DNA of 37,180 nucleotides. It comes from a virus. The stretch lies in the IMG/VR virus record IMGVR_UViG_3300045988_118775, positions 1 through 37,180 of that record; one strand, given 5' to 3'. The translations under genes were made by a program, and so were the position numbers. Positions 8,191-30,829 of this stretch are shown in pieces (within the stretch, counting starts at the first letter, position 1; each line of letters opens with the position of its first letter). The notes under the pieces were generated by a model that did not search any database, was not told the DNA's origin, and saw only the letters and a list, made by a program, of their open reading frames with translations.

Positions 8191-8742
8191 ATGGGGCGAA
8201 TTATGGTTAAAGAGATGAATGAAATAATCCAAGGCGTAGCGGAGGCAATGACGCGCTTAGCTGACGCGTGGTGGGTGAAGTCCTTTTTTTCCGCCTTAGG
8301 TAGCGGCGCTATTTGGTTGATTCACTTAAAACACGTTCAAGTGCTGGGCGTGTTTATTTTATTAGTACTGATCGATCTCACTACTAAATGGAGCGCGATC
8401 ACATATCAAATGCTCATTGAAAAAGGGGCGAAGCCGGAGAACATATCCGGATTTGATAAGTGGATAGCTATTCCGGTCGCGTTCGCCGAGGGGCGTGTGT
8501 CATCACGCTTTTGTCGGAACGGCTTTTTTTATAAGCTGTTGACCTACACGATAGCCACGGCGGCTGGTTTCTGCTGGGACTTTATGACGGGCGCAGGATT
8601 CGCCGTTAATCTCGTGTGGATGTATTTAGGCGCGTCTGAGTTTTTATCTATTCTTGAAAACATGAGAGACGGCGGCAACGTTGCTATGGGTCGTTTTCTG
8701 GAACTTGTGAAAGATAAAGTCGAGAAGAAAATAAAAATGTGA
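8191..8742 (+). CDS. holin (toxin-secretion / phage-lysis holin family, TcdE/phi105-like)
   Basis: Several predicted TM segments. C-terminal GASEFLSILENMRDGG matches the SEFxSILEN motif recalled for the TIGR01593 holin family. Lies immediately upstream of the amidase. The start could be 8191, 8203 or 8215. Confidence 0.7.
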   Translation: MGRIMVKEMNEIIQGVAEAMTRLADAWWVKSFFSALGSGAIWLIHLKHVQVLGVFILLVLIDLTTKWSAITYQMLIEKGAKPENISGFDKWIAIPVAFAEGRVSSRFCRNGFFYKLLTYTIATAAGFCWDFMTGAGFAVNLVWMYLGASEFLSILENMRDGGNVAMGRFLELVKDKVEKKIKM

Positions 8743-8756
8743 AAGGAGAATGAACG

Positions 8757-9278
8757 ATGAAAGTATTTATTAATCCGGGTCATGCTCCGAACGGCGTGCC
8801 GGATCCGGGTGCGGTCAATCCGGTTACTGGTGATCGCGAATGTGATTATGCGTTGACCTGCGGCGAGCAGGTAAGAGATTATCTCATCGCCGCCGGGTGC
8901 AAAGCTGCCATGCTCCAGTCGGACAGCTTAAGCGAAATATGCGAAACGTCCAACGCGTGGGAAGCGGATGTTTTTATTTCTATTCACTGCAACTCGTTTA
9001 ACACGATGGCGCGCGGAACGGAAACGCTTTACAAGTCGGAAGCGGGAAAAGTATTAGCCGACTGTATCCAATCTCAGATTATTAATTCGATTGATACGCT
9101 TGACCGTGGAATTAAGCAAAGAGACCGCCTTTGGGTGCTGAACGGAACCAATGCGCCAGCCGTTTTAGTCGAATTAGCGTTCATCGACAACGCAAACGAC
9201 CTCGAACTTCTGAAAACGCAGTTAAACGCCTTTTCTGCGGCGATTGCGCGCGGCGTGACTGATTATGCCAAGCGGTGA
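8757..9278 (+). CDS. N-acetylmuramoyl-L-alanine amidase endolysin (Amidase_3 catalytic domain only, no wall-binding domain)
   Basis: MKVFINPGHAPNGVPDPGAVNP... plus the ...ELAFIDNANDLE Amidase_3 signature. RBS AAAGGAGAATGAACGATG. Confidence 0.85.
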   Translation: MKVFINPGHAPNGVPDPGAVNPVTGDRECDYALTCGEQVRDYLIAAGCKAAMLQSDSLSEICETSNAWEADVFISIHCNSFNTMARGTETLYKSEAGKVLADCIQSQIINSIDTLDRGIKQRDRLWVLNGTNAPAVLVELAFIDNANDLELLKTQLNAFSAAIARGVTDYAKR

Positions 9279-9445
9279 ATAAAAGCCTGTAAAACACGCC
9301 TATTTTGGTGACGTTTTTAAGCGAATGAGCAACAAAAACATTAATCAGGAAAAATCATGTATTTTTCGTTGGCGAAATTGTATTTTTGATTTAGGGCATC
9401 GCTTTTTCAAAGTGTGTTAAAATGTGAGCAGGTGAAAGCGACAAG

Positions 9446-9503
9446 TCTACGCGAGGAGTCGCGAAGACCTTGCTTATCTACGCGAGCGGCAAGGTCTTTT
9501 TTG
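9446..9503 (+). terminator. pair of overlapping, mutually exclusive hairpins; the second is an intrinsic terminator (aagaccttgc...gcaaggtctt + T7)
   Basis: Hairpin 1 is gtctacgcga-ggag-tcgcgaagac (9446..9469). Hairpin 2 is aagaccttgc-14 nt-gcaaggtctt followed by TTTTTTG (9464..9503). They share 9464..9469. Confidence 0.55.
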
Positions 9504-9512
9504 TGCGTAATA

Positions 9513-9521
9513 TGCTATAAT
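9513..9521 (+). promoter_or_regulatory. extended -10 promoter element TGcTATAAT
   Basis: TGCTATAAT directly downstream of the terminator T-run. No good -35, which is typical of extended -10 promoters. Would initiate near 9528. Confidence 0.4.
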
Positions 9522-9527
9522 GTAATT

Positions 9528-9600
9528 GAACAGCGGTAAACCTACGGGAGAGCCGCGGGGACTTGCCTACATGGATGAGTACGCAAGTCCTTTTAATTTG
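9528..9600 (+). ncRNA. candidate short structured transcript / leader ending in terminator hairpin ggacttgc-16 nt-gcaagtcc + TTTTAATTT
   Basis: Perfect 8-bp stem at 9559..9566 / 9583..9590 followed by a T-rich tract. No ORF. Confidence 0.3.
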
Positions 9601-9607
9601 CAAATGT

Positions 9608-9690
9608 TTAACTTCGTCAAAATTGGTGTTTTCACGAAGCTAAAGTATTGAACTTCGTAAAAAGTAGCATTTTCACGAAGTTAGGCTAGG
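9608..9690 (+). repeat. two tandem ~32-bp imperfect palindromes (aacttcgtcaaaattggtgttttcacgaagct / aacttcgtaaaaagtagcattttcacgaagtt)
   Basis: Each unit has arms cttcgtNaaa / tttcacgaag (10/11 complementary). The two units are direct repeats of each other. Located in the leader of the 9761 gene. Confidence 0.6.
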
Positions 9691-9710
9691 TATCTTTTTT
9701 GCTTTTATCT

Positions 9711-9741
9711 ATATATAGTATGTGAATAAATTACACATACT
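9711..9741 (+). promoter_or_regulatory. perfect 11-bp inverted repeat with 9-bp spacer (tatagtatgtg-aataaatta-cacatactata) just upstream of the RBS
   Basis: Seen directly in the sequence. Ends 4 nt before the AAAGGGGTGAG Shine-Dalgarno. Confidence 0.6.
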
Positions 9742-9760
9742 ATAAAAGGGGTGAGAACGA

Positions 9761-10189
9761 TTGCAAAGAAAAAGGTTATTTTTATTCTTATTGCCGCTAT
9801 TATTGGCGGCATTTTTATTTGGTGGCTTTTCAGTGAAAGCGGCTCCGGTGACGTTAACGGAGACGGAATGGCAGACACTAACGTCAGAATTGAACGCGCT
9901 CGAACAGAGAACGAACGAGCGGCAGAAGCTAATAAACGAATTGAAGAAAGCGTCAACCGGCTTGAACACGAGCAACAACGAATTGAAAGCGGAAATAAAT
10001 CAGTTGAAGATGTTGCAGATCGAGCAGCGGCGATCCTTAACGCGGACAGAGCAAGCCTTGAAAGAATCAGAGCAGTCGTTGATGCGGTGGAAAAAAGAAG
10101 AGTTGAAAAAGCGAACGAGCCTTGAACGAAAAAAACGCGCGTGGCAGATTATAGCAGTAGCCGCGGTAATTGCGGCGGCGGTAAAATAG
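9761..10189 (+). CDS. moron: secreted coiled-coil protein with Sec signal peptide and C-terminal transmembrane anchor
   Basis: TTG start 6 nt after a strong SD (AAAGGGGTGA). N-terminus MQRKRLFLFLLPLLLAAFLFGGFSVKA|AP is a signal peptide. Heptad-rich middle (LTSELNALEQRTNERQKLINELKK...). C-terminus AWQIIAVAAVIAAAVK is hydrophobic. An alternative frame (9751..10125, GTG start) is also open. Confidence 0.5.
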   Translation: MQRKRLFLFLLPLLLAAFLFGGFSVKAAPVTLTETEWQTLTSELNALEQRTNERQKLINELKKASTGLNTSNNELKAEINQLKMLQIEQRRSLTRTEQALKESEQSLMRWKKEELKKRTSLERKKRAWQIIAVAAVIAAAVK

Positions 10190-10245
10190 CTTTCGAGTAG
10201 CTTTCGAGTAGCTTTCGAGTAGCTTTCGAGTAGCTTTCAAGTAGC
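10190..10245 (+). repeat. 11-bp tandem repeat (gctttcgagta) x5 immediately after the stop codon
   Basis: agctttcgagt agctttcgagt agctttcgagt agctttcgagt agctttcaagt; the last copy is degenerate. Confidence 0.85.
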
Positions 10246-10270
10246 GTTTGATTTAGAGATGTGTTAAATG

Positions 10271-10310
10271 AAAAAGGAGCAGGCATTTTGCCCGCTCCGC
10301 TTTTTTTTTA
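10271..10310. terminator. bidirectional intrinsic terminator (A5-ggagcaggc...gcccgctcc-T10)
   Basis: GC stem flanked by an A-run upstream and a T-run downstream. Sits between convergent genes 9761..10189 (+) and 10308..10508 (-). Confidence 0.7.
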
Positions 10311-10508
10311 TTGTTCCGGTTCTTTGCCGAAATGCCTCACCATGGCGTCTCTTGTAATTAGCCAGATACGGCTTGATTTTCTGATTTCACCTTTCATAAA
10401 TCTGTCCGGCGTTTGAAAGATCAGTTGCCGGATTTGCCCCGGCGCTAATTTCCAGCGATCCTCCGCTTCTTTAGCGGTCAATACCTCATCAATCAACATG
10501 GCGATCAA
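10308..10508 (-). CDS. small HTH DNA-binding protein (excisionase/MerR-type HTH_17-like); candidate Xis
   Basis: 66 aa. LTAKEAEDRWKLAPGQIRQL...GEIRKSSRIWLITRDAMVRHFG resembles excisionase-type HTH proteins (LTxxEAA...G.WR.....L). Start ATGG overlaps the stop of the upstream gene. About 0.9 kb from int on the same strand. Confidence 0.4.
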   Translation of the reverse strand: MIAMLIDEVLTAKEAEDRWKLAPGQIRQLIFQTPDRFMKGEIRKSSRIWLITRDAMVRHFGKEPEQ

Positions 10509-10972
10509 CGATTCAAGAATAACGCGCCGAGCGGACTATAAATATACTGATCGCCGAACTCTTTCAAGTGTTCATCAACATCTCCGGTGACGAATTCATC
10601 TTCTAAATATCTGCGCAATTCTTTTTCGTTCGTTGCGAACGGGTAAAAGGTCATCGGCTCTCCGCTTTTCAGCGAACGGTTATATTCGTCGATATATTTC
10701 GGCAGCTTATCGAGGTCATCTACCTTTTTATAATCCATGAGTGCTAACGCTTGCATAATTTGAATGTTCGTGTGGCGTTCGCAAATATCGGCAGCGATTT
10801 CTTGCTCCGTCTTAACTTGGTCGGTATCTTCAACGTCATAATCAAATTTGATGGTTGCAAAGCCGCTAACCGTGGCGGTCGTTTCATCAATCATTTTGAA
10901 CTCCGCGTGCATTTGATTAAAAAATGGTTTTTTCTGTTCGTTTGCTTGTTCGTTAATTTTAATGGTCGTCAT
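10505..10972 (-). CDS. hypothetical acidic protein (about 20% Asp/Glu), first gene of a 2-gene minus-strand operon
   Basis: 155 aa. Strong RBS (AGGAGG, 8-nt spacing). Sigma-A promoter upstream. No recognisable catalytic motif. Confidence 0.55.
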   Translation of the reverse strand: MTTIKINEQANEQKKPFFNQMHAEFKMIDETTATVSGFATIKFDYDVEDTDQVKTEQEIAADICERHTNIQIMQALALMDYKKVDDLDKLPKYIDEYNRSLKSGEPMTFYPFATNEKELRRYLEDEFVTGDVDEHLKEFGDQYIYSPLGALFLNR

Positions 10973-11030
10973 TTTCTGTTCCTCCTAAATTTTTTACTCT
11001 AGCGTGTCTCTCTCCCCGCTTTCTGATTAA

Positions 11031-11059
11031 AGTATAACGCAGTCGTTATGACTTGTCAA
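11031..11059 (-). promoter_or_regulatory. sigma-A promoter for the 10972..10308 operon (TTGACA-17-TATACT on minus strand)
   Basis: Minus-strand -35 TTGACA (complement of 11054..11059) and -10 TATACT (complement of 11031..11036) with a 17-nt spacer. cgttatgac direct repeats at 11044 and 11113 flank it. Confidence 0.55.
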
Positions 11060-11155
11060 GCGAAAAGTCAAAGAAAATGAAAGATTTTTCAAAAAACTTT
11101 TTAACGTGTTCGTTATGACGCATAAAGCCTATTGTTGTCGGCTTGAATTGAAATG

Positions 11156-11181
11156 ATTTTCCCCCATTGTTCCCCCACGGC
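11156..11181. repeat. 26-bp direct repeat copy A (attttcccccattgttcccccacggc); candidate integrase arm-type site / attP region
   Basis: Identical 26-mer at 11363..11388. The intervening ~180 bp is AT-rich with ttcatcgtt repeats. Confidence 0.6.
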
Positions 11182-11362
11182 GGCATGATAACTGCAACAA
11201 ACGCCTATTTACGGGCGTTCTTTTGTCTGTGTTTTATATATTTAATATATAAACACTGCCGTTTTTGTTCTCATCGTACAAGATCTATAATCGTCGCAAT
11301 GCCCGCCGTTATAGGCTTTTGTGTTTTCGCTTTCATCGTTGCAGTTTCGTTTTCATCGTTAA

Positions 11363-11388
11363 ATTTTCCCCCATTGTTCCCCCACGGC
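11363..11388. repeat. 26-bp direct repeat copy B, abutting the integrase stop codon
   Basis: Ends 1 nt into the int stop codon (11388..11390). Confidence 0.6.
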
Positions 11389-12533
11389 TACATTGATATC
11401 TCGTCGAGCTTGTCGGCAGCGTCGCGGTGCATTTTTTCGCTGGCGTGCGAATAAACGGCTAGCGTCGTTTTCGGATTGATATGCCCGACGCGTTCCATGA
11501 TCGTTTTTAGTGGAACGCCTAACTCCGCCAATAAAAATATATGCGTATGCCGAAATACGTGCGTCGTGACATGGCGCGGCAATTTAAGCGAGCGAAGCGT
11601 GTGGTTTATGTCGGAAAAGCGGATAGGGTTGCCCGTCGACGATGTAAAGAAGTAGCCTTTTTCCGTATATTTTCGTCTCCCCCATGCGGCCGCCGATTTC
11701 ATGTTTTCAATCCGGACTTGCTTTAGAATTTCAATGGCTCGATTATTGAGGGCGACAGTCCGGAACGACGACAGCGTTTTGGGTGGCGTTTTTATTTCTT
11801 TGTCAGAAAACGGGATGGAGTGGGTGATCGTGCCGTTAATATCAATATTTCGCCCGTCAAAATCTTGATAACGCAAACCGGAGCATTCGCCGGCGCGTAA
11901 GCCGGTAAGCGCTATAAATTCAAGCATGAGGGCGTATCTCGGCTTTACTTCGTTCACCTTTTGAAGTACTTCCGCCAATTCTTCCCGCGTCAAAAACTTT
12001 TCCCGCGCGCGTTTCACATCGTCAACGGTTTTAGCGCGTCCGGAAACCGTCATTTCATGAATAAAACTTATATCTTCAATATACTTCATGCGTTTAGCGT
12101 ACTTCATGGACTGCTTAAAAAATGAGGCGGTCATGCTGACAGTGACGCCGGACAGGTCGCGCATTTTAAGAAAAGACCTTTGCACAACGGACAGGGTAAT
12201 GGCGGATATTAAAAGCCCGTCGGGAAATATCTTAACAAGCCGCTTAATCGAATCCGCATGCGCGCGCTGTGTTGACGGTCTAACATCGGGGCGGCGGTAC
12301 TCCGCATGCTCTTTTAATAACTCCGCAAGCGTGATATTTTTCACCGTTTTCGTTTCTTGCGCCTCATCAATCTTCTTTTGTAATTCGGCGGTTGCCCATT
12401 TCATGGTCGCATTCGTCTTTTTATCCATGGTGACCGACACGCGCCGACGCGTTCCGGTTAGTCGGTCAATGTACGTTTCGACGGCACGATACGACGTGCG
12501 GCCGCTTTTCGTTTTCCGTTCCTCGATATACAT
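11388..12533 (-). CDS. int: tyrosine site-specific integrase
   Basis: 381 aa. C-terminal catalytic region ...HVFRHTHIFLLAELGVPLKTIMERVGHINPKTTLAVYSH (R..H..R..Y signature) and SAM-like N-domain. RBS AGGAGG. Confidence 0.9.
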   Translation of the reverse strand: MYIEERKTKSGRTSYRAVETYIDRLTGTRRRVSVTMDKKTNATMKWATAELQKKIDEAQETKTVKNITLAELLKEHAEYRRPDVRPSTQRAHADSIKRLVKIFPDGLLISAITLSVVQRSFLKMRDLSGVTVSMTASFFKQSMKYAKRMKYIEDISFIHEMTVSGRAKTVDDVKRAREKFLTREELAEVLQKVNEVKPRYALMLEFIALTGLRAGECSGLRYQDFDGRNIDINGTITHSIPFSDKEIKTPPKTLSSFRTVALNNRAIEILKQVRIENMKSAAAWGRRKYTEKGYFFTSSTGNPIRFSDINHTLRSLKLPRHVTTHVFRHTHIFLLAELGVPLKTIMERVGHINPKTTLAVYSHASEKMHRDAADKLDEISM

Positions 12534-12692: not shown

Positions 12693-13376
12693 TTATTGAA
12701 TAATACTCTGCTTGATGACGGCAATACCTAATATACGGAAATCATCACAGTTGTTAGCGTTGAAAATCATAGGCGGATAAGCGGGATTTTCTGACTGTAA
12801 AATAACGCTTCCGGCGTGGCGATAGAAACGTTTAAGAGTAACGGCGTCGCCGTCGATGCGCACGACTACCACTTGGCCGGATTCCGCCTCATTTTGCGAC
12901 TTAACAAAAACTATATCGCCGTCGTAAATGCCTATGCCGGTCATGCTGTCGCCGTGAACGCGCAAGCAAAAATCGGCGTTTGCCGTTGTTCCGACATAGC
13001 CTTCAAAATATTCATCCGACAATATCGGTTCGCCGGCAGCAGTTGTCCCCAATAAGGGGACTTTTTTTAATTTAGGAACGAAAACATTAGGGTCGTCTGG
13101 AATTGATGACGCTTTGTGGCTACCGGTATTTTCTTTGAATGTGATTGTTTGATCGTCATCAAGCATATCAAACAGATCGCTAGTACTTATTTCCATTGCC
13201 TGCGCAAGCGCCTGCAGCGTATCAGCTGTAGGACTGATCGGTTGACCGGAGCGGGGGTTAATGCCACGCTCGATATATGAAATATATCCTTTGGAGCGCC
13301 CTGATAATTTCGCGAAGTCGTCCAGAGAAAGGCCGCGCGCTTCCCGAAATATTTTAATAATCTCTCCTAGTTTCAT
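12693..13376 (-). CDS. cI: CI-like prophage repressor (XRE HTH + LexA/S24 peptidase domain)
   Basis: N-terminal HTH LSLDDFAKLSGRSKGYISYIERG. C-terminal GDSMTGIGIYDGDIVFV...LKRF (Ser/Lys dyad). Divergent from the cro-like gene. Confidence 0.9.
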   Translation of the reverse strand: MKLGEIIKIFREARGLSLDDFAKLSGRSKGYISYIERGINPRSGQPISPTADTLQALAQAMEISTSDLFDMLDDDQTITFKENTGSHKASSIPDDPNVFVPKLKKVPLLGTTAAGEPILSDEYFEGYVGTTANADFCLRVHGDSMTGIGIYDGDIVFVKSQNEAESGQVVVVRIDGDAVTLKRFYRHAGSVILQSENPAYPPMIFNANNCDDFRILGIAVIKQSIIQ

Positions 13377-25353: not shown

Positions 25354-25785
25354 GTGGCGAAGTTGACAAGAAAACAAGAGCTATTCGCGGTTGAATACGT
25401 ACGCCTTAAGGGCAACGGTACACAGGCGGCCATTGCGGCCGGTTACAGCAAAAAAACAGCCGCGGCAATAGCAAGAGAAAACCTTAGAAAACTATATATA
25501 AAAAATCGTATTGAAGAGCTGACAGAAAAGGCAGACGCGGAGAAAGTCGCCGACGCGAAAGAAGTGCTGCAACTGTTGACGGAAATAGTCCGCGGTGAGA
25601 TGAGCGAAGAGGTCGTCGCGCTGAACCCGCAAGGCGAGGAAAGCCGGACAAATAGAAAGCCGACAATTAAAGACCGGAGTAAAGCGCTTGAAATTCTTTC
25701 TCGGTGTCTTGGAATGACATTGCCCGAGACACAGGTAAACGTTACTCCGGTCATCATCACCGGAGAGGACAAGCTCGATGAATGA
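25354..25785 (+). CDS. terS: terminase small subunit (Terminase_2 / XtmA-like)
   Basis: GTG 25354 is 7 nt after GAAAGGAG. ...KQELFAVEYVRLKGNGTQAAIAAGYSKKTAAAIARENLRK... is the typical terS HTH region. Confidence 0.8.
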   Translation: MAKLTRKQELFAVEYVRLKGNGTQAAIAAGYSKKTAAAIARENLRKLYIKNRIEELTEKADAEKVADAKEVLQLLTEIVRGEMSEEVVALNPQGEESRTNRKPTIKDRSKALEILSRCLGMTLPETQVNVTPVIITGEDKLDE

Positions 25786-27022
25786 GCGGCGCGTTTATCT
25801 TCCGGACGTAGTTGGTAAAGGCTACGGGGCTTTTTGGAAGTGGCGCGGGCGCTATCGGGTAGTCAAGGGCAGCCGTGCCAGCAAAAAATCGAAAACAACG
25901 GCGCTTTGGTACATTTATAACTTGATGAAGCACCCGGCGGCGAATTTGGTTGTTGTCCGGAAAGTCTTTAGAACACTTCAAAATTCGTGTTTTTCCGACT
26001 TATGCTGGGCGATTGACCGTCTGGGCGTTAGTCCGTACTGGAAAGCGACTAAAAGCCCGCTTGAAATCGTCTACATACCGACAGGGCAAAAAATATTATT
26101 CGTCGGGCTCGATGATCCGTTAAAAATAACGTCGTTATCCGTTCCGCGCGGCGTGCTTTGCTGGGCGTGGATAGAAGAGGCTTACGAAGTTACATCAGAA
26201 GAGGCTTTTAACAGGCTAGATGAATCGATCCGCGGACGGTTGCCGAAAGGCCTATTTACACAGTTAACGCTGACCTTTAACCCGTGGAGTAGCCGCCACT
26301 GGCTGAAAAAGCGCTTTTTCGACGAGGAAAGCCCTCAGGTATTGGCGCTTACCACTGATTACCGATGCAATGAGTTTTTGAGCCCGTCGGATTTGGCGCT
26401 ATTTGAGGAAATGAAAAAGAATAAAAAGCGCTACCGGGTGGCGGGGCTCGGTGACTGGGGCATTGTCGAAGGGCTTATTTATGATAACTGGACTGAAAAA
26501 GCCTTTGATATTGACGCGCTGAGAAATCAGGAAGGAATCAACGCGGCGTTCGGGCTTGACTTCGGTTTTACCACCGACCCGGCGGCGCTATGGTGCGGGC
26601 TAGTGGATAAGGGAAAGCGCCTAATATACGTATTTGATGAACTTTACGAAAAAGGGCTGACGAATCAGGAGCTTTACAAGGCGATCGAGGCGCGCGGCTA
26701 CGCGAAAGAACAGATCACAGCGGACAGCGCAGAGCCTAAATCCATCGAGGAGCTGCGCCGGGCGGGATTGACGAGAGTGCGGAAAAGCCGCAAAGGCCCG
26801 GACAGCATCCGGCACGGCATTCAACAGATACAAAACTTTCAAATTATCGTTCACCCGCGCTGCGTGAATACCTTGCGCGAGTTGTCGTTGTACGCGTGGG
26901 CAAAAGATAAATTCGACGATTACACGGGTAAGCCGGAAGATGACAACAACCACTTAATGGACGCTATGCGTTACGCGCTGGCGGGCGCGCTCGGAAAAGA
27001 GCTAGTCGGCTTTGGAGGTTAA
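25778..27022 (+). CDS. terL: terminase large subunit (PBSX/XtmB family)
   Basis: 414 aa. N-terminal ATPase and C-terminal nuclease. Overlaps the terS stop. Confidence 0.85.
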   Translation: MNERRVYLPDVVGKGYGAFWKWRGRYRVVKGSRASKKSKTTALWYIYNLMKHPAANLVVVRKVFRTLQNSCFSDLCWAIDRLGVSPYWKATKSPLEIVYIPTGQKILFVGLDDPLKITSLSVPRGVLCWAWIEEAYEVTSEEAFNRLDESIRGRLPKGLFTQLTLTFNPWSSRHWLKKRFFDEESPQVLALTTDYRCNEFLSPSDLALFEEMKKNKKRYRVAGLGDWGIVEGLIYDNWTEKAFDIDALRNQEGINAAFGLDFGFTTDPAALWCGLVDKGKRLIYVFDELYEKGLTNQELYKAIEARGYAKEQITADSAEPKSIEELRRAGLTRVRKSRKGPDSIRHGIQQIQNFQIIVHPRCVNTLRELSLYAWAKDKFDDYTGKPEDDNNHLMDAMRYALAGALGKELVGFGG

Positions 27023-27023
27023 A

Positions 27024-28511
27024 TTGAGTATTTTAGAAACGTTGCGAAACTTCGGGCGCGGGCAGTCGCTCGTCAGGGAGGAGAAAACGGTGCTTTTCAA
27101 CGACGCAATGACCGAAGTTGAATTTTTAGAGAAAGAGATAAAAGCCTTTTTGACATCGGACAAGCGGCGGCAGATGATCGAGGGCGAAGCCTACTATCAG
27201 GGCGCGCACGATGTCGCGGAAAAAGTCCGCACGGCGATCGGCGAAAACGGGCAGCCGGAGGCAATTCACAATTTACCAAATAACCGGGTGACGTATAACA
27301 CGTACGCGAATTTAGTCGATCAAAAGGCTAACTACCTTTTAGCGAATCCGATTGAGCCGCAGACGGAAGAGGCGGAATTTAAGGAGAAAGTCGCGGCGAT
27401 CCTCGACACGGCTTTTGACAAGCGTATACGGGCGATCGGTGTCGACGCGCTGAATTGCGGTATCGGCTATTTGCTCGTCTACGTTGCCGACGGCGAATTG
27501 AAATATAAGCGGCTTAAACCTTACGAGGTATTGCCATTTTGGAAAGATGAAGAGCACGAAGAGCTGGACGCGTTTATACGTATCTACGGGGTAGAAGAGT
27601 ATAGAGGGCGTGAAAAAAAGACCGTTCAACATGTGGAATATTACACGCTTGACGGCGTTAAATACTTCATCTACACGGACGCTGGCAAACTTGAGCCGGA
27701 TATTACCCGCGAAGATGAAACCTACTTGACGTATAGGAGCGCGGAGGGGGTAAAGGGCTTTAACTGGGCGCGGTTGCCCTTGATAGCGTTTAAGTATAAC
27801 GCCAACGAACAGCCGCTATTGGCGCGCGTGAAGTCGTTGCAGGACGCGTTAAACGACATGATGAGCGGCGTGTTGGATAGAATCCAGGAAGATAGCCGCA
27901 ACACGATTTTAGTCGTTAAAAACTACGACGGCACAAAGGCCGACGAGTTTCGGCACAATCTTTCGCAGTACGGGGTGGTATTTGTCCGGACGGAAGACGG
28001 CGCGGAGGGCGGCGTTGATACGCTCCAGATTGAAGTCAATCCGGGTAATTATGAAATCGTTATCAAGCTATTGAAAAAAGCGATTATCGAATGCGGACGC
28101 GGCTATGACGCAAAAGACGACCGACTCGGCGGCAATGCTAACCAACTGAACATTAAAAGCATGTATAGCGACATTGACCTAGACGCGGACAGCATGCAGC
28201 TTGAATTTTCGGTTTCACTTGATCGGCTTTTATACTTCGTCGGTTTAGTCGCTGATGGCTTCCGCGTCGTTAAACATAAGCCGGTTTTGTGGAAGTTTAA
28301 CCGCGACATCATCATCAACGAGGCGGACACGATCGCCAACGCCCGCGACAGTGTGGGCATTTTGTCCATGCGCACCATTGTCGCCAACCACCCGTGGACG
28401 GTCGACGCGAACGACGAGCTGCGGCAGATCGAAAAAGAAAGATCAGAGGCAATACCCGCCCTTGAAGACTATGCTAAACCGACGGAAACGGGCGAAAATA
28501 CAGAGGAATAG
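27024..28511 (+). CDS. portal protein (SPP1 gp6 family)
   Basis: TTG 27024 is 5 nt after GGAGG. About 495 aa. Acidic C-terminus. Position after terL. Confidence 0.8.
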   Translation: MSILETLRNFGRGQSLVREEKTVLFNDAMTEVEFLEKEIKAFLTSDKRRQMIEGEAYYQGAHDVAEKVRTAIGENGQPEAIHNLPNNRVTYNTYANLVDQKANYLLANPIEPQTEEAEFKEKVAAILDTAFDKRIRAIGVDALNCGIGYLLVYVADGELKYKRLKPYEVLPFWKDEEHEELDAFIRIYGVEEYRGREKKTVQHVEYYTLDGVKYFIYTDAGKLEPDITREDETYLTYRSAEGVKGFNWARLPLIAFKYNANEQPLLARVKSLQDALNDMMSGVLDRIQEDSRNTILVVKNYDGTKADEFRHNLSQYGVVFVRTEDGAEGGVDTLQIEVNPGNYEIVIKLLKKAIIECGRGYDAKDDRLGGNANQLNIKSMYSDIDLDADSMQLEFSVSLDRLLYFVGLVADGFRVVKHKPVLWKFNRDIIINEADTIANARDSVGILSMRTIVANHPWTVDANDELRQIEKERSEAIPALEDYAKPTETGENTEE

Positions 28512-28515
28512 CTAA

Positions 28516-29934
28516 ATGGCTTATAACTACTGGGAAGAGCGTTTCAAGCGACTAAAAACGGCAGAAATGGGAAAGGCTGAACAGGCTAACGCGGATCTTG
28601 CCCGCGTATATCGTGAAACGCTTCGCCAACTTCGGGCAGAGGTCGAGCAGTGGTACGACCGATTTGCGAAAGAAAATAAAATAAGCCTTGCGGAAGCGCG
28701 GCGGATTTTAGACAATCGAGAGCTAAAAGAGTTCAAAATGACGCTGGCGGACTTTATCAAGGAGGCAAAGCGGCTTGACCTTGACCCGGCACATATCCGA
28801 ATGTTAGAGAACGCGTCTATGCGCGTGAGATTGACGAGATCACAAGAGATTTACTTAAAAACGGCTCAATACGTCGAAAAACTGGCAAAATCGCACGGCT
28901 GGCAACTTAGCGGCCTAATGCGTGAAGTTTACACGGATAGCGTCTATAAAACGGCGTACGAGACGCAGAAGGTAACGGGTTTTGAAAACTTTCGAGCGGT
29001 ACGGGAGCGGCAAATTGAGGCGGCGATCTCGAAACCGTGGGCGCCCGATGGAGCGGACTTTTCGTCGCGGATCTGGAAAAACAAAACGCAGCTAATAAAT
29101 TCACTACAAACGGACATCACGCAGTCGCTGATGACCGGATCAAGCACGGCGCAGTTATCGGAAAAGATCGCGGCGCGGTTCAATACTTCTTATAATCAAG
29201 CTTACCGGCTCGTCGAAACGGAAACGGCGTACATACAAGAGCGGGCAATGCTCGATACGTACGATGAGCTCGGGCTGGAGCAATACCAGATCTGCGCGGT
29301 TTTGGACAGCAAAACAAGCGAAATATGCCAAGATCTCGACGGAAAGGTATTTGACCGGAAAGACGCAAAGCCGGGAATAACAATGCCGCCTTTTCATTGT
29401 CATTGCCGATCAACGACCGTACCGTACATTGAGGGCTTGCTCGATGACGGCGGCAGAGTAGCGCGAGATCCGGAGACGGGCAAGACGGTCGAGATACCGG
29501 ACATGACCTATAAGGAGTGGAAAGAGAAATATGTAGTTAAAATTGATGGAAATGAAGAGTATAATGTAATTAGGGAGATAAAAGGCAGACCGAATAAGTA
29601 CGCCGTAGATAAAATATCGAGCGGCGCATATGGGGCAAAAATTAACGAAGAAAAGCAAAAACCGCATATGGAATCGACAGCAGGGAAAGGAAAGAGTTAT
29701 TTGTTTGATACCGTAGACCCGCAGGAACTGTTTAATAAATATGCGGGAACGGGGACAATAGTAAAAACACGTAATGGAAATAACACAAATAAAGAAGAAT
29801 GCGTTGCCAATAAATACATAGGAATAGATGTTTCCAGTGGATTAAAGACAAGAAAGTTTAAGATTCATCATTCAAAAAGTAGAACGCATATTGTACCCAA
29901 GAGGGAGAGGGAAAATGGTAGAGATAAAAAATAA
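28516..29934 (+). CDS. head morphogenesis protein (MuF / SPP1 gp7 family) with about 150-aa low-GC basic C-terminal extension (candidate toxin domain)
   Basis: MuF core ends near ...MPPFHCHCRSTTVPYI. From about residue 310 the coding DNA turns AT-rich and encodes a K-rich domain (...KGKSYLFDTVDPQELFNKYAGTGTIVKTRNGNN...KIHHSKSRTHIVPKRE). Confidence 0.8.
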   Translation: MAYNYWEERFKRLKTAEMGKAEQANADLARVYRETLRQLRAEVEQWYDRFAKENKISLAEARRILDNRELKEFKMTLADFIKEAKRLDLDPAHIRMLENASMRVRLTRSQEIYLKTAQYVEKLAKSHGWQLSGLMREVYTDSVYKTAYETQKVTGFENFRAVRERQIEAAISKPWAPDGADFSSRIWKNKTQLINSLQTDITQSLMTGSSTAQLSEKIAARFNTSYNQAYRLVETETAYIQERAMLDTYDELGLEQYQICAVLDSKTSEICQDLDGKVFDRKDAKPGITMPPFHCHCRSTTVPYIEGLLDDGGRVARDPETGKTVEIPDMTYKEWKEKYVVKIDGNEEYNVIREIKGRPNKYAVDKISSGAYGAKINEEKQKPHMESTAGKGKSYLFDTVDPQELFNKYAGTGTIVKTRNGNNTNKEECVANKYIGIDVSSGLKTRKFKIHHSKSRTHIVPKRERENGRDKK

Positions 29935-30121
29935 GTGGTTTGGAAAGAAAGTAAGAATTATTGATATAGATAGCAAAGAATTTATCGGAATTGTAGATGG
30001 AATTACTGGGGCGGCAGATAACGACGAAACCGGAAGAGATTCATTGGATTTAGACGACGGTAAAAACATAATTTTCTTTAGCGATAATGAGATAGCAAGC
30101 GTTGAGATTATAGAAGAATAA
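29915..30121 (+). CDS. small acidic protein overlapping the MuF gene end; candidate immunity protein
   Basis: Track ORF 29891..30121. Start ATG 29915 after GGGAGAGGG. 68 aa, acidic (DNDETGRDSLDLDD...EIIEE). Low GC like the MuF C-terminal extension. Followed by two terminators. Confidence 0.5.
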   Translation: MVEIKNKWFGKKVRIIDIDSKEFIGIVDGITGAADNDETGRDSLDLDDGKNIIFFSDNEIASVEIIEE

Positions 30122-30148
30122 AACCACGGTATAAAAGCCGTGGTTTTT
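30120..30148 (+). terminator. intrinsic terminator (aaccacgg-tataaaag-ccgtggtt + T6)
   Basis: Perfect 8-bp stem directly after the stop codon. Confidence 0.75.
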
Positions 30149-30167
30149 TAGTGAGATTTTAGGTAAT

Positions 30168-30193
30168 AAGCACTCGCAAGGGTGCTTTTTATA
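30168..30193 (+). terminator. second intrinsic terminator (aagcac-tcgcaagg-gtgctt + T5)
   Basis: Stem-loop + T-run 20 nt after the first. Confidence 0.55.
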
Positions 30194-30283
30194 TTGCCTT
30201 TTTAGCATTGTAGGCGTAAAAGAACAAGACCGGAAACGGCGGGAGTGGCCGCCGAATAACAAGCGAAACGGGAGGAGTTAATT

Positions 30284-30829
30284 ATGACCAAAGAAGAATT
30301 GAAAGCGCTCGGCTTGAACGATGAGCAAGCCGAAAAGATCGTTGAGGACTACGGCAAAAATTTTGTTGCCAAGTCGCAATTCAACGCAAAAAATGACGAG
30401 TTAAAAGCATTAAAGGCAGAACGGCAGACGGCACAGGCTGAATTGGACAAATTGAAAGCCGATAACGCCAATAATGCGGATCTCGTCAAACAATTAGACG
30501 AGTTGAAGGCGGCACAAGCGAAGAGAGAGAAAGAGTACGCGGCGCAAGTGGAACAGATGAAACTTGACGCGGCGGTGGATCGGTCGCTCGTGGCGGCAAA
30601 AGTGAAAAACGCAAAAGCCGTGCGTGCCCTCTTAGATATGGGCGCGGTAAAACTCGACGGCGAAACGATTAGCGGATTAGAGGAGCAGATCGAGGCGCTA
30701 AAAACTTCTGACGGCTATTTGTTTGAGGAGGACGCGCAGATCACGGGAATTATCCCGCAAAGCGGCGCAGATCCGGCACCGAAAAACAGCATTGAACAAA
30801 TTATTGACGGCGCAATCGCCAACATTTGA
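30284..30829 (+). CDS. scaffolding protein (coiled-coil, GP20-like)
   Basis: 181 aa, highly alpha-helical, Ala/Lys/Glu-rich. RBS GGGAGGAG. Precedes the capsid gene. Confidence 0.75.
   Translation: MTKEELKALGLNDEQAEKIVEDYGKNFVAKSQFNAKNDELKALKAERQTAQAELDKLKADNANNADLVKQLDELKAAQAKREKEYAAQVEQMKLDAAVDRSLVAAKVKNAKAVRALLDMGAVKLDGETISGLEEQIEALKTSDGYLFEEDAQITGIIPQSGADPAPKNSIEQIIDGAIANI

Follow-up and report, generated by a model that had tools for sequence, protein, structure and literature searches.

In this study, we analyzed a 37,180-nucleotide stretch of viral DNA (IMG/VR virus record IMGVR_UViG_3300045988_118775, positions 1 to 37,180; hereafter the window) and found that a locus in its head-morphogenesis operon is, with high probability, a polymorphic toxin-immunity cassette of the MuF family in a temperate phage of Negativicoccus succinicivorans. 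The locus comprises two genes on the plus strand. The first (muf-Ntox50, 28516..29934) encodes a 472-amino acid (aa) minor head protein (MuF/SPP1 gp7-like) with a predicted C-terminal ribonuclease (RNase) toxin domain, and the second (29915..30121) encodes a 68-aa acidic Sm-like protein (isoelectric point, pI, 4.2), a candidate immunity protein of the Ntox50 domain. A MuF polymorphic toxin and immunity architecture had been proposed for this locus from the sequence alone (hereafter the original prediction), and our results agreed with this proposal: a MuF domain, swapped C-termini and a conserved, linked small open reading frame (ORF) were all observed.

First, the N-terminal part of the 472-aa protein was recognized by several profile collections. 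Both Pfam (PF04233, E 7.7e-17, 62.5 bits against a cutoff of 29.6, residues 196-301) and NCBIfam (TIGR01641 'phage SPP1 gp7', E 7.8e-25, 87.4 bits against a cutoff of 39.65, residues 198-304) identified a Phage_Mu_F domain, the domain proper spanning residues 196-301 (29101..29418, plus strand), and the minor head protein family phrog_115 aligned over residues 4-465 (E 7e-116). The domain contains a PPFHCHCRSTT motif, which was invariant in an alignment of MuF relatives (alignment A4). Jamet 2017 defined MuF toxins by an N-terminal domain of the MuF superfamily (PF04233, PF06152, MuF3 or MuF4), which is PF04233 in the present protein. Residue 305 is the last of the MuF core motif PPFHCHCRSTTVPYI, and approximately 167 residues follow it, close to the original prediction, which had placed the end of the core near residue 310 and the length of the extension at about 160 residues.

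Second, the C-terminal part was found to be exchangeable. A conserved junction motif, RVARDPETGKTVEIPDMTYKEWKEKYV (residues 314-340, 29455..29535, plus strand), was the last stretch common to MuF proteins with other C-terminal domains in alignment A4. Close relatives, obtained with the C-terminal part as query, matched the MuF part through ...MTYKEWKEKYV (DMTYKEWKEKYV), which ends at residue 340, and were unrelated beyond it. In the same alignment, P0135, P0136, P0018 and P0137 were identical or near-identical up to this residue and then continued into unrelated sequences: an ADP-ribosyltransferase (ADPrib_exo_Tox/ART) in P0135, a Prok-JAB-like domain in P0136 and P0018 (as well as in P0021), and yet another C-terminus in P0137. 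Thus, the 472-aa protein is truly polymorphic, since differing C-termini after a shared MuF core are what defines a polymorphic toxin. The motif RVARDPETGKTV.IP.MTY.EW was invariant across MuF relatives with differing C-termini and could still be recognized in distant MuF-Ntox50 proteins, and the break in guanine-plus-cytosine (GC) content coincided with the junction motif. Judging from the sequence, this motif is a probable recombination handle.

Third, the variable C-terminal module (residues 341-472, 29536..29934, plus strand), which is of low GC content and basic (pI 9.8), contains the Ntox50 domain at residues 376-461 (29641..29898, plus strand). The domain was identified by Pfam, PDB sequence search and Foldseek. 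PF15542 matched along its entire length (all 92 profile positions, 1-92; E 1.2e-22; score 80.8 bits, cutoff 22.2). The PDB sequences matched were the MafB2 toxin (8HHJ_B, 1.4e-4) and YxiD-CTD (9V8I_B, 8.5e-4). An AlphaFold (AF2) model of residues 346-472 had a predicted local distance difference test score (pLDDT) of 92, and Foldseek against PDB at E<=1e-3 retrieved only 8hhj_B (E 9e-6, template modeling score, TM, 0.70) and 9v8i_B (E 2e-5, TM 0.67), with 30-32% identity to the toxin model. The original prediction had considered this domain not assignable to a known toxin fold, a statement that has to be withdrawn; the Foldseek search that it had suggested for the extension returned two Ntox50 RNase chains. 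Three putative catalytic histidines, His384 (29665-29667), His451 (29866-29868) and His458 (29887-29889, in the HxVP motif HIVP), lie in the pattern KPH...KIHH..THIVP, align with H335/H402/H409 of MafB2, and are each at least 90% conserved in 35 homologues (alignment A6). MafB2-CT is an active RNase that, according to mutagenesis, is toxic only with His335, His402 and His409 in place (PMC9970974), while YxiD-CTD is a metal-dependent tRNase that cuts several tRNAs (PMC12700104). An earlier survey predicted Ntox50 to be a BECR-fold RNase in which H, S, K, T, H and K residues and HxVP are conserved (Zhang 2012; PMC3482391). Profile and model matches thus assign the C-terminal domain to Ntox50, a BECR/RNase-A-like RNase family, and by analogy with the solved homologues, cleavage of RNA or tRNA and arrest of translation would be its likely activity in an unprotected cell. 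All 35 toxin ORFs examined contained Ntox50, 16 of them with PF04233 and two with PF06152. The Ntox50 module also occurs detached from MuF, and its homologues outside phage heads include MafB2-CT (Maf) and YxiD-CTD (LXG/type VII secretion system, T7SS).

Base composition gave a similar picture. GC content was 0.501 in 28516-29550, 0.365 in 29551-29934 and 0.333 in 29915-30121, so the AT-rich character noticed earlier applies both to the extension and to the small gene behind it. The 571-nt swapped module as a whole (GC 0.359, compared with a window mean of 0.507 and a standard deviation of 0.047) fell within the lowest 0.2% of sliding windows and holds the GC minimum of the window. The C-terminal 127 aa are Lys-rich, as had also been noted (15% Lys, pI 9.8). 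One might suppose that the extension is an ordinary, integral and non-toxic part of the gp7/MuF head protein of this phage lineage, whose composition only seems distinct, and the alignment of phrog_115 over residues 4-465 is in favor of such an explanation, implying that many catalogued minor head proteins have a similar extension. However, the extension is a separate Pfam toxin domain with intact catalytic residues, near-identical MuF cores carry unrelated C-termini, the same module is known apart from MuF, and the drop of 14 points in GC content at the extension is the largest in the window. An extension integral to gp7 and uniform in composition was what the original prediction had named as evidence against itself; swapped C-termini and a GC drop were found instead. 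Within the limits of sequence analysis, alignment A4 and the composition already refute this explanation, which we consider hardly credible.

The small ORF downstream starts with ATG at 29915 and overlaps the toxin gene by 20 nt. Its own ribosome-binding site (RBS), GGGAGAGGG, could be read from the sequence at 29903..29911 (plus strand), inside the end of the toxin gene; overlap, RBS and acidic character all agreed with what had been predicted. TTG at 29891 was also considered as a start and rejected, because homologues begin at the Met equivalent to ATG 29915 and the RBS agrees with this position. The protein has 17 D+E and 8 K+R residues (net charge -9, pI 4.2) and an acidic loop, GAADNDETGRD, at about residues 32-42. 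It had no match in Pfam or NCBIfam, and when it was compared with PDB sequences, both as a single sequence and as a profile, only insignificant matches to a nanobody, Gemin6 and LSm8 were obtained. On the other hand, it matched PHROG 1865 (E 4.6e-15), to which no function is assigned, and phmmer over 1.84 billion representatives retrieved 30 family members at E<=1e-3, nearly all of 63-73 aa (hereafter the 65-aa family), with the consensus Y.GKKV.IIDIDGKEF.G.V...T.A.D...G.DSI.I..G...I.F.E.EI.SIEII. The AlphaFold model of the 68-aa protein (pLDDT 96) consists of a short N-terminal helix and five strands, which form an Sm/Hfq-like beta-barrel as in Hfq and LSm. A tblastn search with the small ORF found no match in deposited phages because the family is too diverged; the family hidden Markov model (HMM) does detect members there. 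A pattern search of viral contigs gave pattern matches, none of which was confirmed.

Two side observations concern this family. One member, OlisA2_0028 of Streptococcus phage OlisA2 (L044:2330-2521), is annotated as 'gemin6 6' behind a gene annotated as 'bacterial toxin', an annotation that independently reflects the Sm-fold similarity. In addition, P0005 and P0006, which are 97% identical to 29915-30121, are attributed to Anaerococcus hydrogenalis and an 'Escherichia coli' metagenome-assembled genome, reflecting either cross-genus transfer or mis-binning or contamination.

To examine the linkage between toxin and small gene, 29 loci from distinct genomes were fetched with the toxin alignment and scanned with the small-ORF family HMM; one further locus ends too early for a linkage call. 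A family member started between -24 and +68 nt from the toxin end in 25 of the 31 Ntox50 C-termini in these 29 other genomes. In three further loci (L033, L035 and L037), a 106-aa YxxD homologue (E 7e-6 to 9v8i_A) occupied the immunity slot. YxxD-type and 65-aa-type immunity genes are therefore alternatives behind Ntox50, and the replacement of the small ORF by a YxxD homologue in the same slot means that position predicts an immunity function. All six deposited phages checked (Javan94, phiC2, Javan5, phiOH2, OlisA2 and AP45) had a 62-68-aa family member after an Ntox50 head protein, with HMM matches of E 1e-14 to 1e-23. The original prediction had held that absence or lack of conservation of the 68-aa ORF in syntenic homologues would count against it, and the ORF proved to be conserved. 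Toxin and partner also diverged together: identity matrices over 29 distinct pairs were correlated (r = 0.51), a value reached by 0 of 2000 permutations in a Mantel test. A variant pair occurs in L009, whose toxin shows 88.5% identity through residue 413 and 47% from there on, and whose partner is only 35% identical. This pair is a co-diversifying unit, in which a variant toxin is accompanied by a variant partner.

The same small gene was also found far from any phage head. A copy 100% identical to that of the phage lies in the N. succinicivorans chromosome between lpxA and lpxI, in the lipid-A operon. Orphan cassettes at about 3480-4330 in L002-L005, L007 and L008, and at L009:4797-6020, are homologous to 29447-30245 of the window, i.e., from the junction motif to the end of a conserved 3' flank. 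In L002, L003, L005, L007 and L008, the orphan immunity gene stands behind a frameshifted Ntox50 remnant (the called product in L003 has 97 aa and begins just past the N-terminal catalytic His), in L004 it stands behind a shorter remnant, and L009 has at this position of the chromosome an unbroken Ntox50 variant of 152 aa with a partner of 65 aa behind it. Exact copies of the immunity sequence were indexed in 52 blocks, compared with 5 blocks for the exact full-length toxin, although protein length biases this comparison. Based on these data, we tentatively suggest, with rather low confidence, that the 65-aa Sm-like family (PHROG 1865) is a dedicated, unnamed Ntox50 immunity family of phages and that the lpxA-lpxI copies are 'vaccination' genes retained by the host. 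If true, these copies would be evidence from genomes for an action of MuF toxins on recipient cells, and hosts and phages would trade toxin tips through orphan cassettes between the conserved junction and the 3' repeat.

Several elements downstream of the small gene appear to belong to the same unit. Two intrinsic terminators on the plus strand, predicted earlier as two consecutive terminators ahead of the scaffold gene (which starts at 30284), were identified: one with an 11-bp stem and a U run at 30120..30149 (-15.8 kcal/mol, z -5.5), and the other with a GC-rich 8-bp core stem (30168-30187) and a U run at 30163..30192 (-13.3 kcal/mol, z -5.6). For each of them, 0 of 200 shuffles folded as well. 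Both are also present in the orphan copies, and hence the terminators belong to the mobile cassette. They are followed by the conserved 3' flank common to chromosomal orphan cassettes (30185..30245, plus strand), which is 92-95% identical to L001, L002-L005 and L009 by blastn and whose 37-nt core (30194-30230) occurs at both cassette ends in L001 and L009.

Taken together, sequence and model evidence indicates that the small protein is very likely the immunity protein (antidote) of the Ntox50 domain, and several observations have to be weighed against this conclusion. First, 6 of the 31 toxin ends had no detectable 65-aa family member; besides the three followed by a YxxD homologue, two of these are in L022 (one being an upstream 79-aa remnant segment) and one is in L020, and in both L020 and L022 an 80-aa ORF resembling an Sm variant lies directly 3' of the main toxin ORF. 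Second, the correlation in the Mantel test might stem from a common ancestry of neighboring genes instead of co-adaptation. Third, two strong terminators precede the essential scaffold and capsid genes, for which a cassette offers no account. Fourth, an alignment of the 65-aa family with YxxD-like proteins gave an hhalign probability of 2.5%, so that homology could not be demonstrated, and 9v8i_A (YxxD) was not within the top 50-60 structural matches of the small protein. The small ORF was therefore not assigned to the YxxD family, the two sharing only fold class and genomic slot, and the mechanistic analogy is consequently confined to the fold class and the acidic loop. Finally, Sm/Hfq folds usually bind RNA, so the protein might have a role other than the inhibition of another protein.

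It may thus be asked whether the 68-aa protein is instead an RNA-binding or assembly factor of the Hfq type, or an unrelated moron behind muf. Such a role would fit three observations: the protein is folded like the RNA chaperones Hfq and LSm, it is not named by any curated family, and homology to a proven immunity protein could not be demonstrated from its sequence. However, the 65-aa family follows Ntox50 specifically, whereas MuF relatives with other C-termini precede other small ORFs; the gene accompanies toxin fragments in orphan cassettes far from head genes; the protein diverges along with the toxin tip; and a YxxD homologue takes the same slot in three loci. Moreover, a strongly acidic protein stands beside a strongly basic partner, and the two genes are translationally coupled through the 20-nt overlap. 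A role other than immunity therefore appears quite improbable.

With the small protein taken as the antidote, the following mechanism could be proposed. The N-terminal 340 residues would form a minor head protein of the SPP1-gp7 type that binds the portal, by analogy with gp7, and as in SPP1 (PMC5576092), the MuF part may be packaged in few copies per capsid (one or two) and exit with the DNA. Residues 341-472 would represent a horizontally acquired low-GC module ending in a His-dependent Ntox50 ribonuclease, which, like MafB2 and YxiD, may cleave RNA or tRNA and arrest translation. The 68-aa protein might bind the basic RNA-binding/catalytic face of the toxin in a 1:1 complex through its acidic beta2-beta3 loop and block the access of substrate, a mode proposed because of the YxxD/MafI2 precedent and of charge complementarity. 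It would protect the producer during virion assembly, lysogens, and any cell with an orphan copy. The toxin tip, immunity gene, two terminators and 3' flank would move as one unit, recombining at the conserved RVARDPETGKTV..MTY.EW junction.

The purpose of such a system may be viewed in two ways. MuF toxins have been regarded as weapons of lysogens against competitors (Jamet 2017; PMC5576092), and also as injected takeover or counter-defence effectors (Zhang 2012; PMC3482391). If the latter applied to the same parts, the packaged Ntox50 RNase would shut down host translation, or destroy RNAs of defence systems or competitor phages, early in infection, and the small protein would only keep the RNase inactive in the producing cell until packaging. 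This explanation is compatible with the location of muf in the virion module and with the transport of gp7-type MuF proteins along with the DNA (PMC5576092). Iyer reportedly argued along similar lines for MuF-fused effectors in 2017. However, a broad tRNase would harm a lysogenizing phage unless the immunity gene were expressed at once. The chromosomal immunity-only copies with decayed toxins suggest that recipients gain from neutralization, an observation that fits a harmful toxin with either purpose. On balance, a takeover or counter-defence effector, instead of a lysogen weapon, appears a possible yet rather unlikely purpose.

Domain searches of the ORFs in the window showed that it represents approximately a whole temperate phage genome, and the source names of the closest proteins point to Negativicoccus succinicivorans as the host. 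Negativicoccus is an anaerobe of gut and skin. A metagenomic contig of 37,410 bp was 100% identical to the window over the 8.2 kb compared. No close deposited phage relative was found by DNA, the sole match being 45 nt over the HIVP motif in Streptococcus Javan prophages. The structural genes comprise a terminase (25778-27022) and an SPP1-type portal (27012-28511) in the head module, muf, a scaffold (30284-30829; PF06810, E 1.5e-39), a capsid and a tail sheath. The muf gene, with the portal gene before it and the scaffold gene after it, lies in the packaging/head module of a temperate tailed phage, the location that Jamet 2017 used as a criterion. Lysis genes (holin, 8191-8742; amidase, 8757-9278), lysogeny genes on the minus strand (integrase, 11388-12533; S24/HTH repressor, 12693-13376) and replication genes (DUF2800 nuclease, PolA, VapE and SNF2) were also identified. 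No tRNA genes, a possible counter to the phage's own tRNase, were found in the phage.

Some additional features were observed in the window and in related loci. A second low-GC stretch (0.375-0.40) at 9200-11400, between the lysis genes and the integrase, contains ORFs at 9761-10189 (plus strand) and 10505-10972 (minus strand) without a meaningful family match, and is probably a cargo (moron) region. Exactly where the variable module starts, at 29537-29565, there is a sigma-70-like site, TTAAAA-17-TATAAT, which could drive the immunity gene independently. It is only a lead and is not claimed as a promoter, because the sites in a promoter scan did not outnumber those in shuffled sequence. The JAB-like C-terminal domain of P0136, P0018 and P0021 contains an HNHP motif and matches Prok-JAB weakly (E 3.8e-4); fragments of it also occur in the L004 island, and no listing of it as a MuF toxin type was found. 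In the same island, a second member of the 65-aa family lies upstream (L004:1950-2153; approximately 60% identical, similar to P0023), with no recognizable toxin in front, and looks like an immunity-only orphan. In the phage fragment L047, a 5'-truncated MuF-JAB-like gene and other small ORFs were found between muf and scaffold. Further small ORFs recurred beside truncated MuF fragments (L047:240-2927 and L001:2150-3129), namely a 79-84-aa family ending in ...NTPPNPDMPEII(V)Y as well as ORFs of 130 aa and 59 aa; Pfam had no match for any of them. They are probably other toxin-tip/immunity cassettes, arranged in arrays and present also inside a phage, between muf and scaffold.

The locus would give a fold and a name to the missing immunity partner of Ntox50 in phages, and its small protein would be, after YxxD, a second Sm-type barrel directed against an Ntox50 RNase. 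MuF toxins are common in prophages of gut and skin, few have been tested, and their biological purpose is hypothetical. The present pair is compact enough for such tests, consisting of a 127-aa basic RNase module with three putative catalytic histidines and a 68-aa acidic partner whose Sm-fold model is of very high confidence, and a natural variant pair (L009) as well as immunity-only chromosomal copies are also at hand.

We finally compared this locus with known systems. Fusions of MuF and Ntox50 have already been listed (Zhang 2012, PMC3482391; Jamet 2017, PMC5576092), and the present locus shares with the MuF polymorphic toxins described there an N-terminal MuF/gp7 domain encoded beside the portal in a temperate tailed phage, a directly following small ORF (<150 aa), and a C-terminal toxin domain common to other polymorphic-toxin families. 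It differs in its host, a Negativicute, and in the contractile-tail sheath gene of its phage. Furthermore, the partner of Ntox50 was given as '-' (unknown) in Zhang 2012, whereas a conserved 65-aa Sm-like family was found here, and the main text of Jamet 2017 mentions neither 'orphan' nor toxin 'cassette', whereas chromosomal orphan toxin-tip/immunity cassettes were found here. An identical gene order was found in the Clostridioides phage phiC2 (head-morphogenesis protein phiC2p04 and phiC2p05), which Zhang 2012 had named as an Ntox50-bearing phage (PMC3482391): a portal, a MuF-type protein ending in Ntox50, a family ORF of 62-68 aa, and scaffold or terminase. A phiC2-like order was also found in Streptococcus Javan prophages, Geobacillus phiOH2, Aeribacillus AP45 and Streptococcus OlisA2. 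In phiC2 and these similar phages, the toxin domain is only 36-55% identical to the one analyzed here, and the partner genes are annotated as 'hypothetical protein' and once as 'gemin6 6'.

Outside phages, the YxiD-CTD/YxxD pair of Bacillus subtilis 6633 (PDB 9V8I; PMC12700104) has a toxin of the same Pfam family and fold and an immunity protein with an Sm-like fold, whose conserved acidic loop plugs the basic face of the active site. However, YxiD is delivered by LXG/T7SS and is not a phage head protein, and YxxD has 110 aa, extra helices and no significant profile similarity to the 65-aa family. MafB2-CT/MafI2 of Neisseria meningitidis B16B6 (PDB 8HHJ; PMC9970974) provided the best toxin match (30% identity, TM 0.70), with its three catalytic histidines conserved in the present toxin, and MafI2 inhibits by forming a 1:1 complex in which the RNA site is occluded through charge complementarity, as is proposed here. 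On the other hand, MafB2-CT depends on Maf-type secretion in a Gram-negative host, the architecture of MafI2 is unlike that of YxxD (PMC12700104), and the small ORF has no sequence match to MafI2 or any PDB chain.

The orphan cassettes resemble those of cdiA-CT/cdiI (contact-dependent inhibition, CDI), rhs-CT and mafB-CT in that 5'-truncated tips keep the junction and are followed by the immunity gene, sometimes in arrays and often with degraded toxin parts. Such cassettes have been regarded as a reservoir for recombination and a source of additional immunity (Zhang 2012; PMC3482391). In contrast with the CDI, Rhs and Maf systems, the cassettes found here derive from a phage head gene and lie in the lpxA-lpxI gap or, inside a phage, between muf and scaffold. 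The combination of MuF-Ntox50 with a small ORF behind it has been described before, is present in phiC2 and many streptococcal prophages, and is not a new kind of system. What is modestly new is the placement of the partner in an Sm-fold family that is conserved but uncurated and stands behind most of the phage-borne Ntox50 domains sampled, together with the co-diversification at sub-domain level and the chromosomal orphan cassettes in the lipid-A operon.

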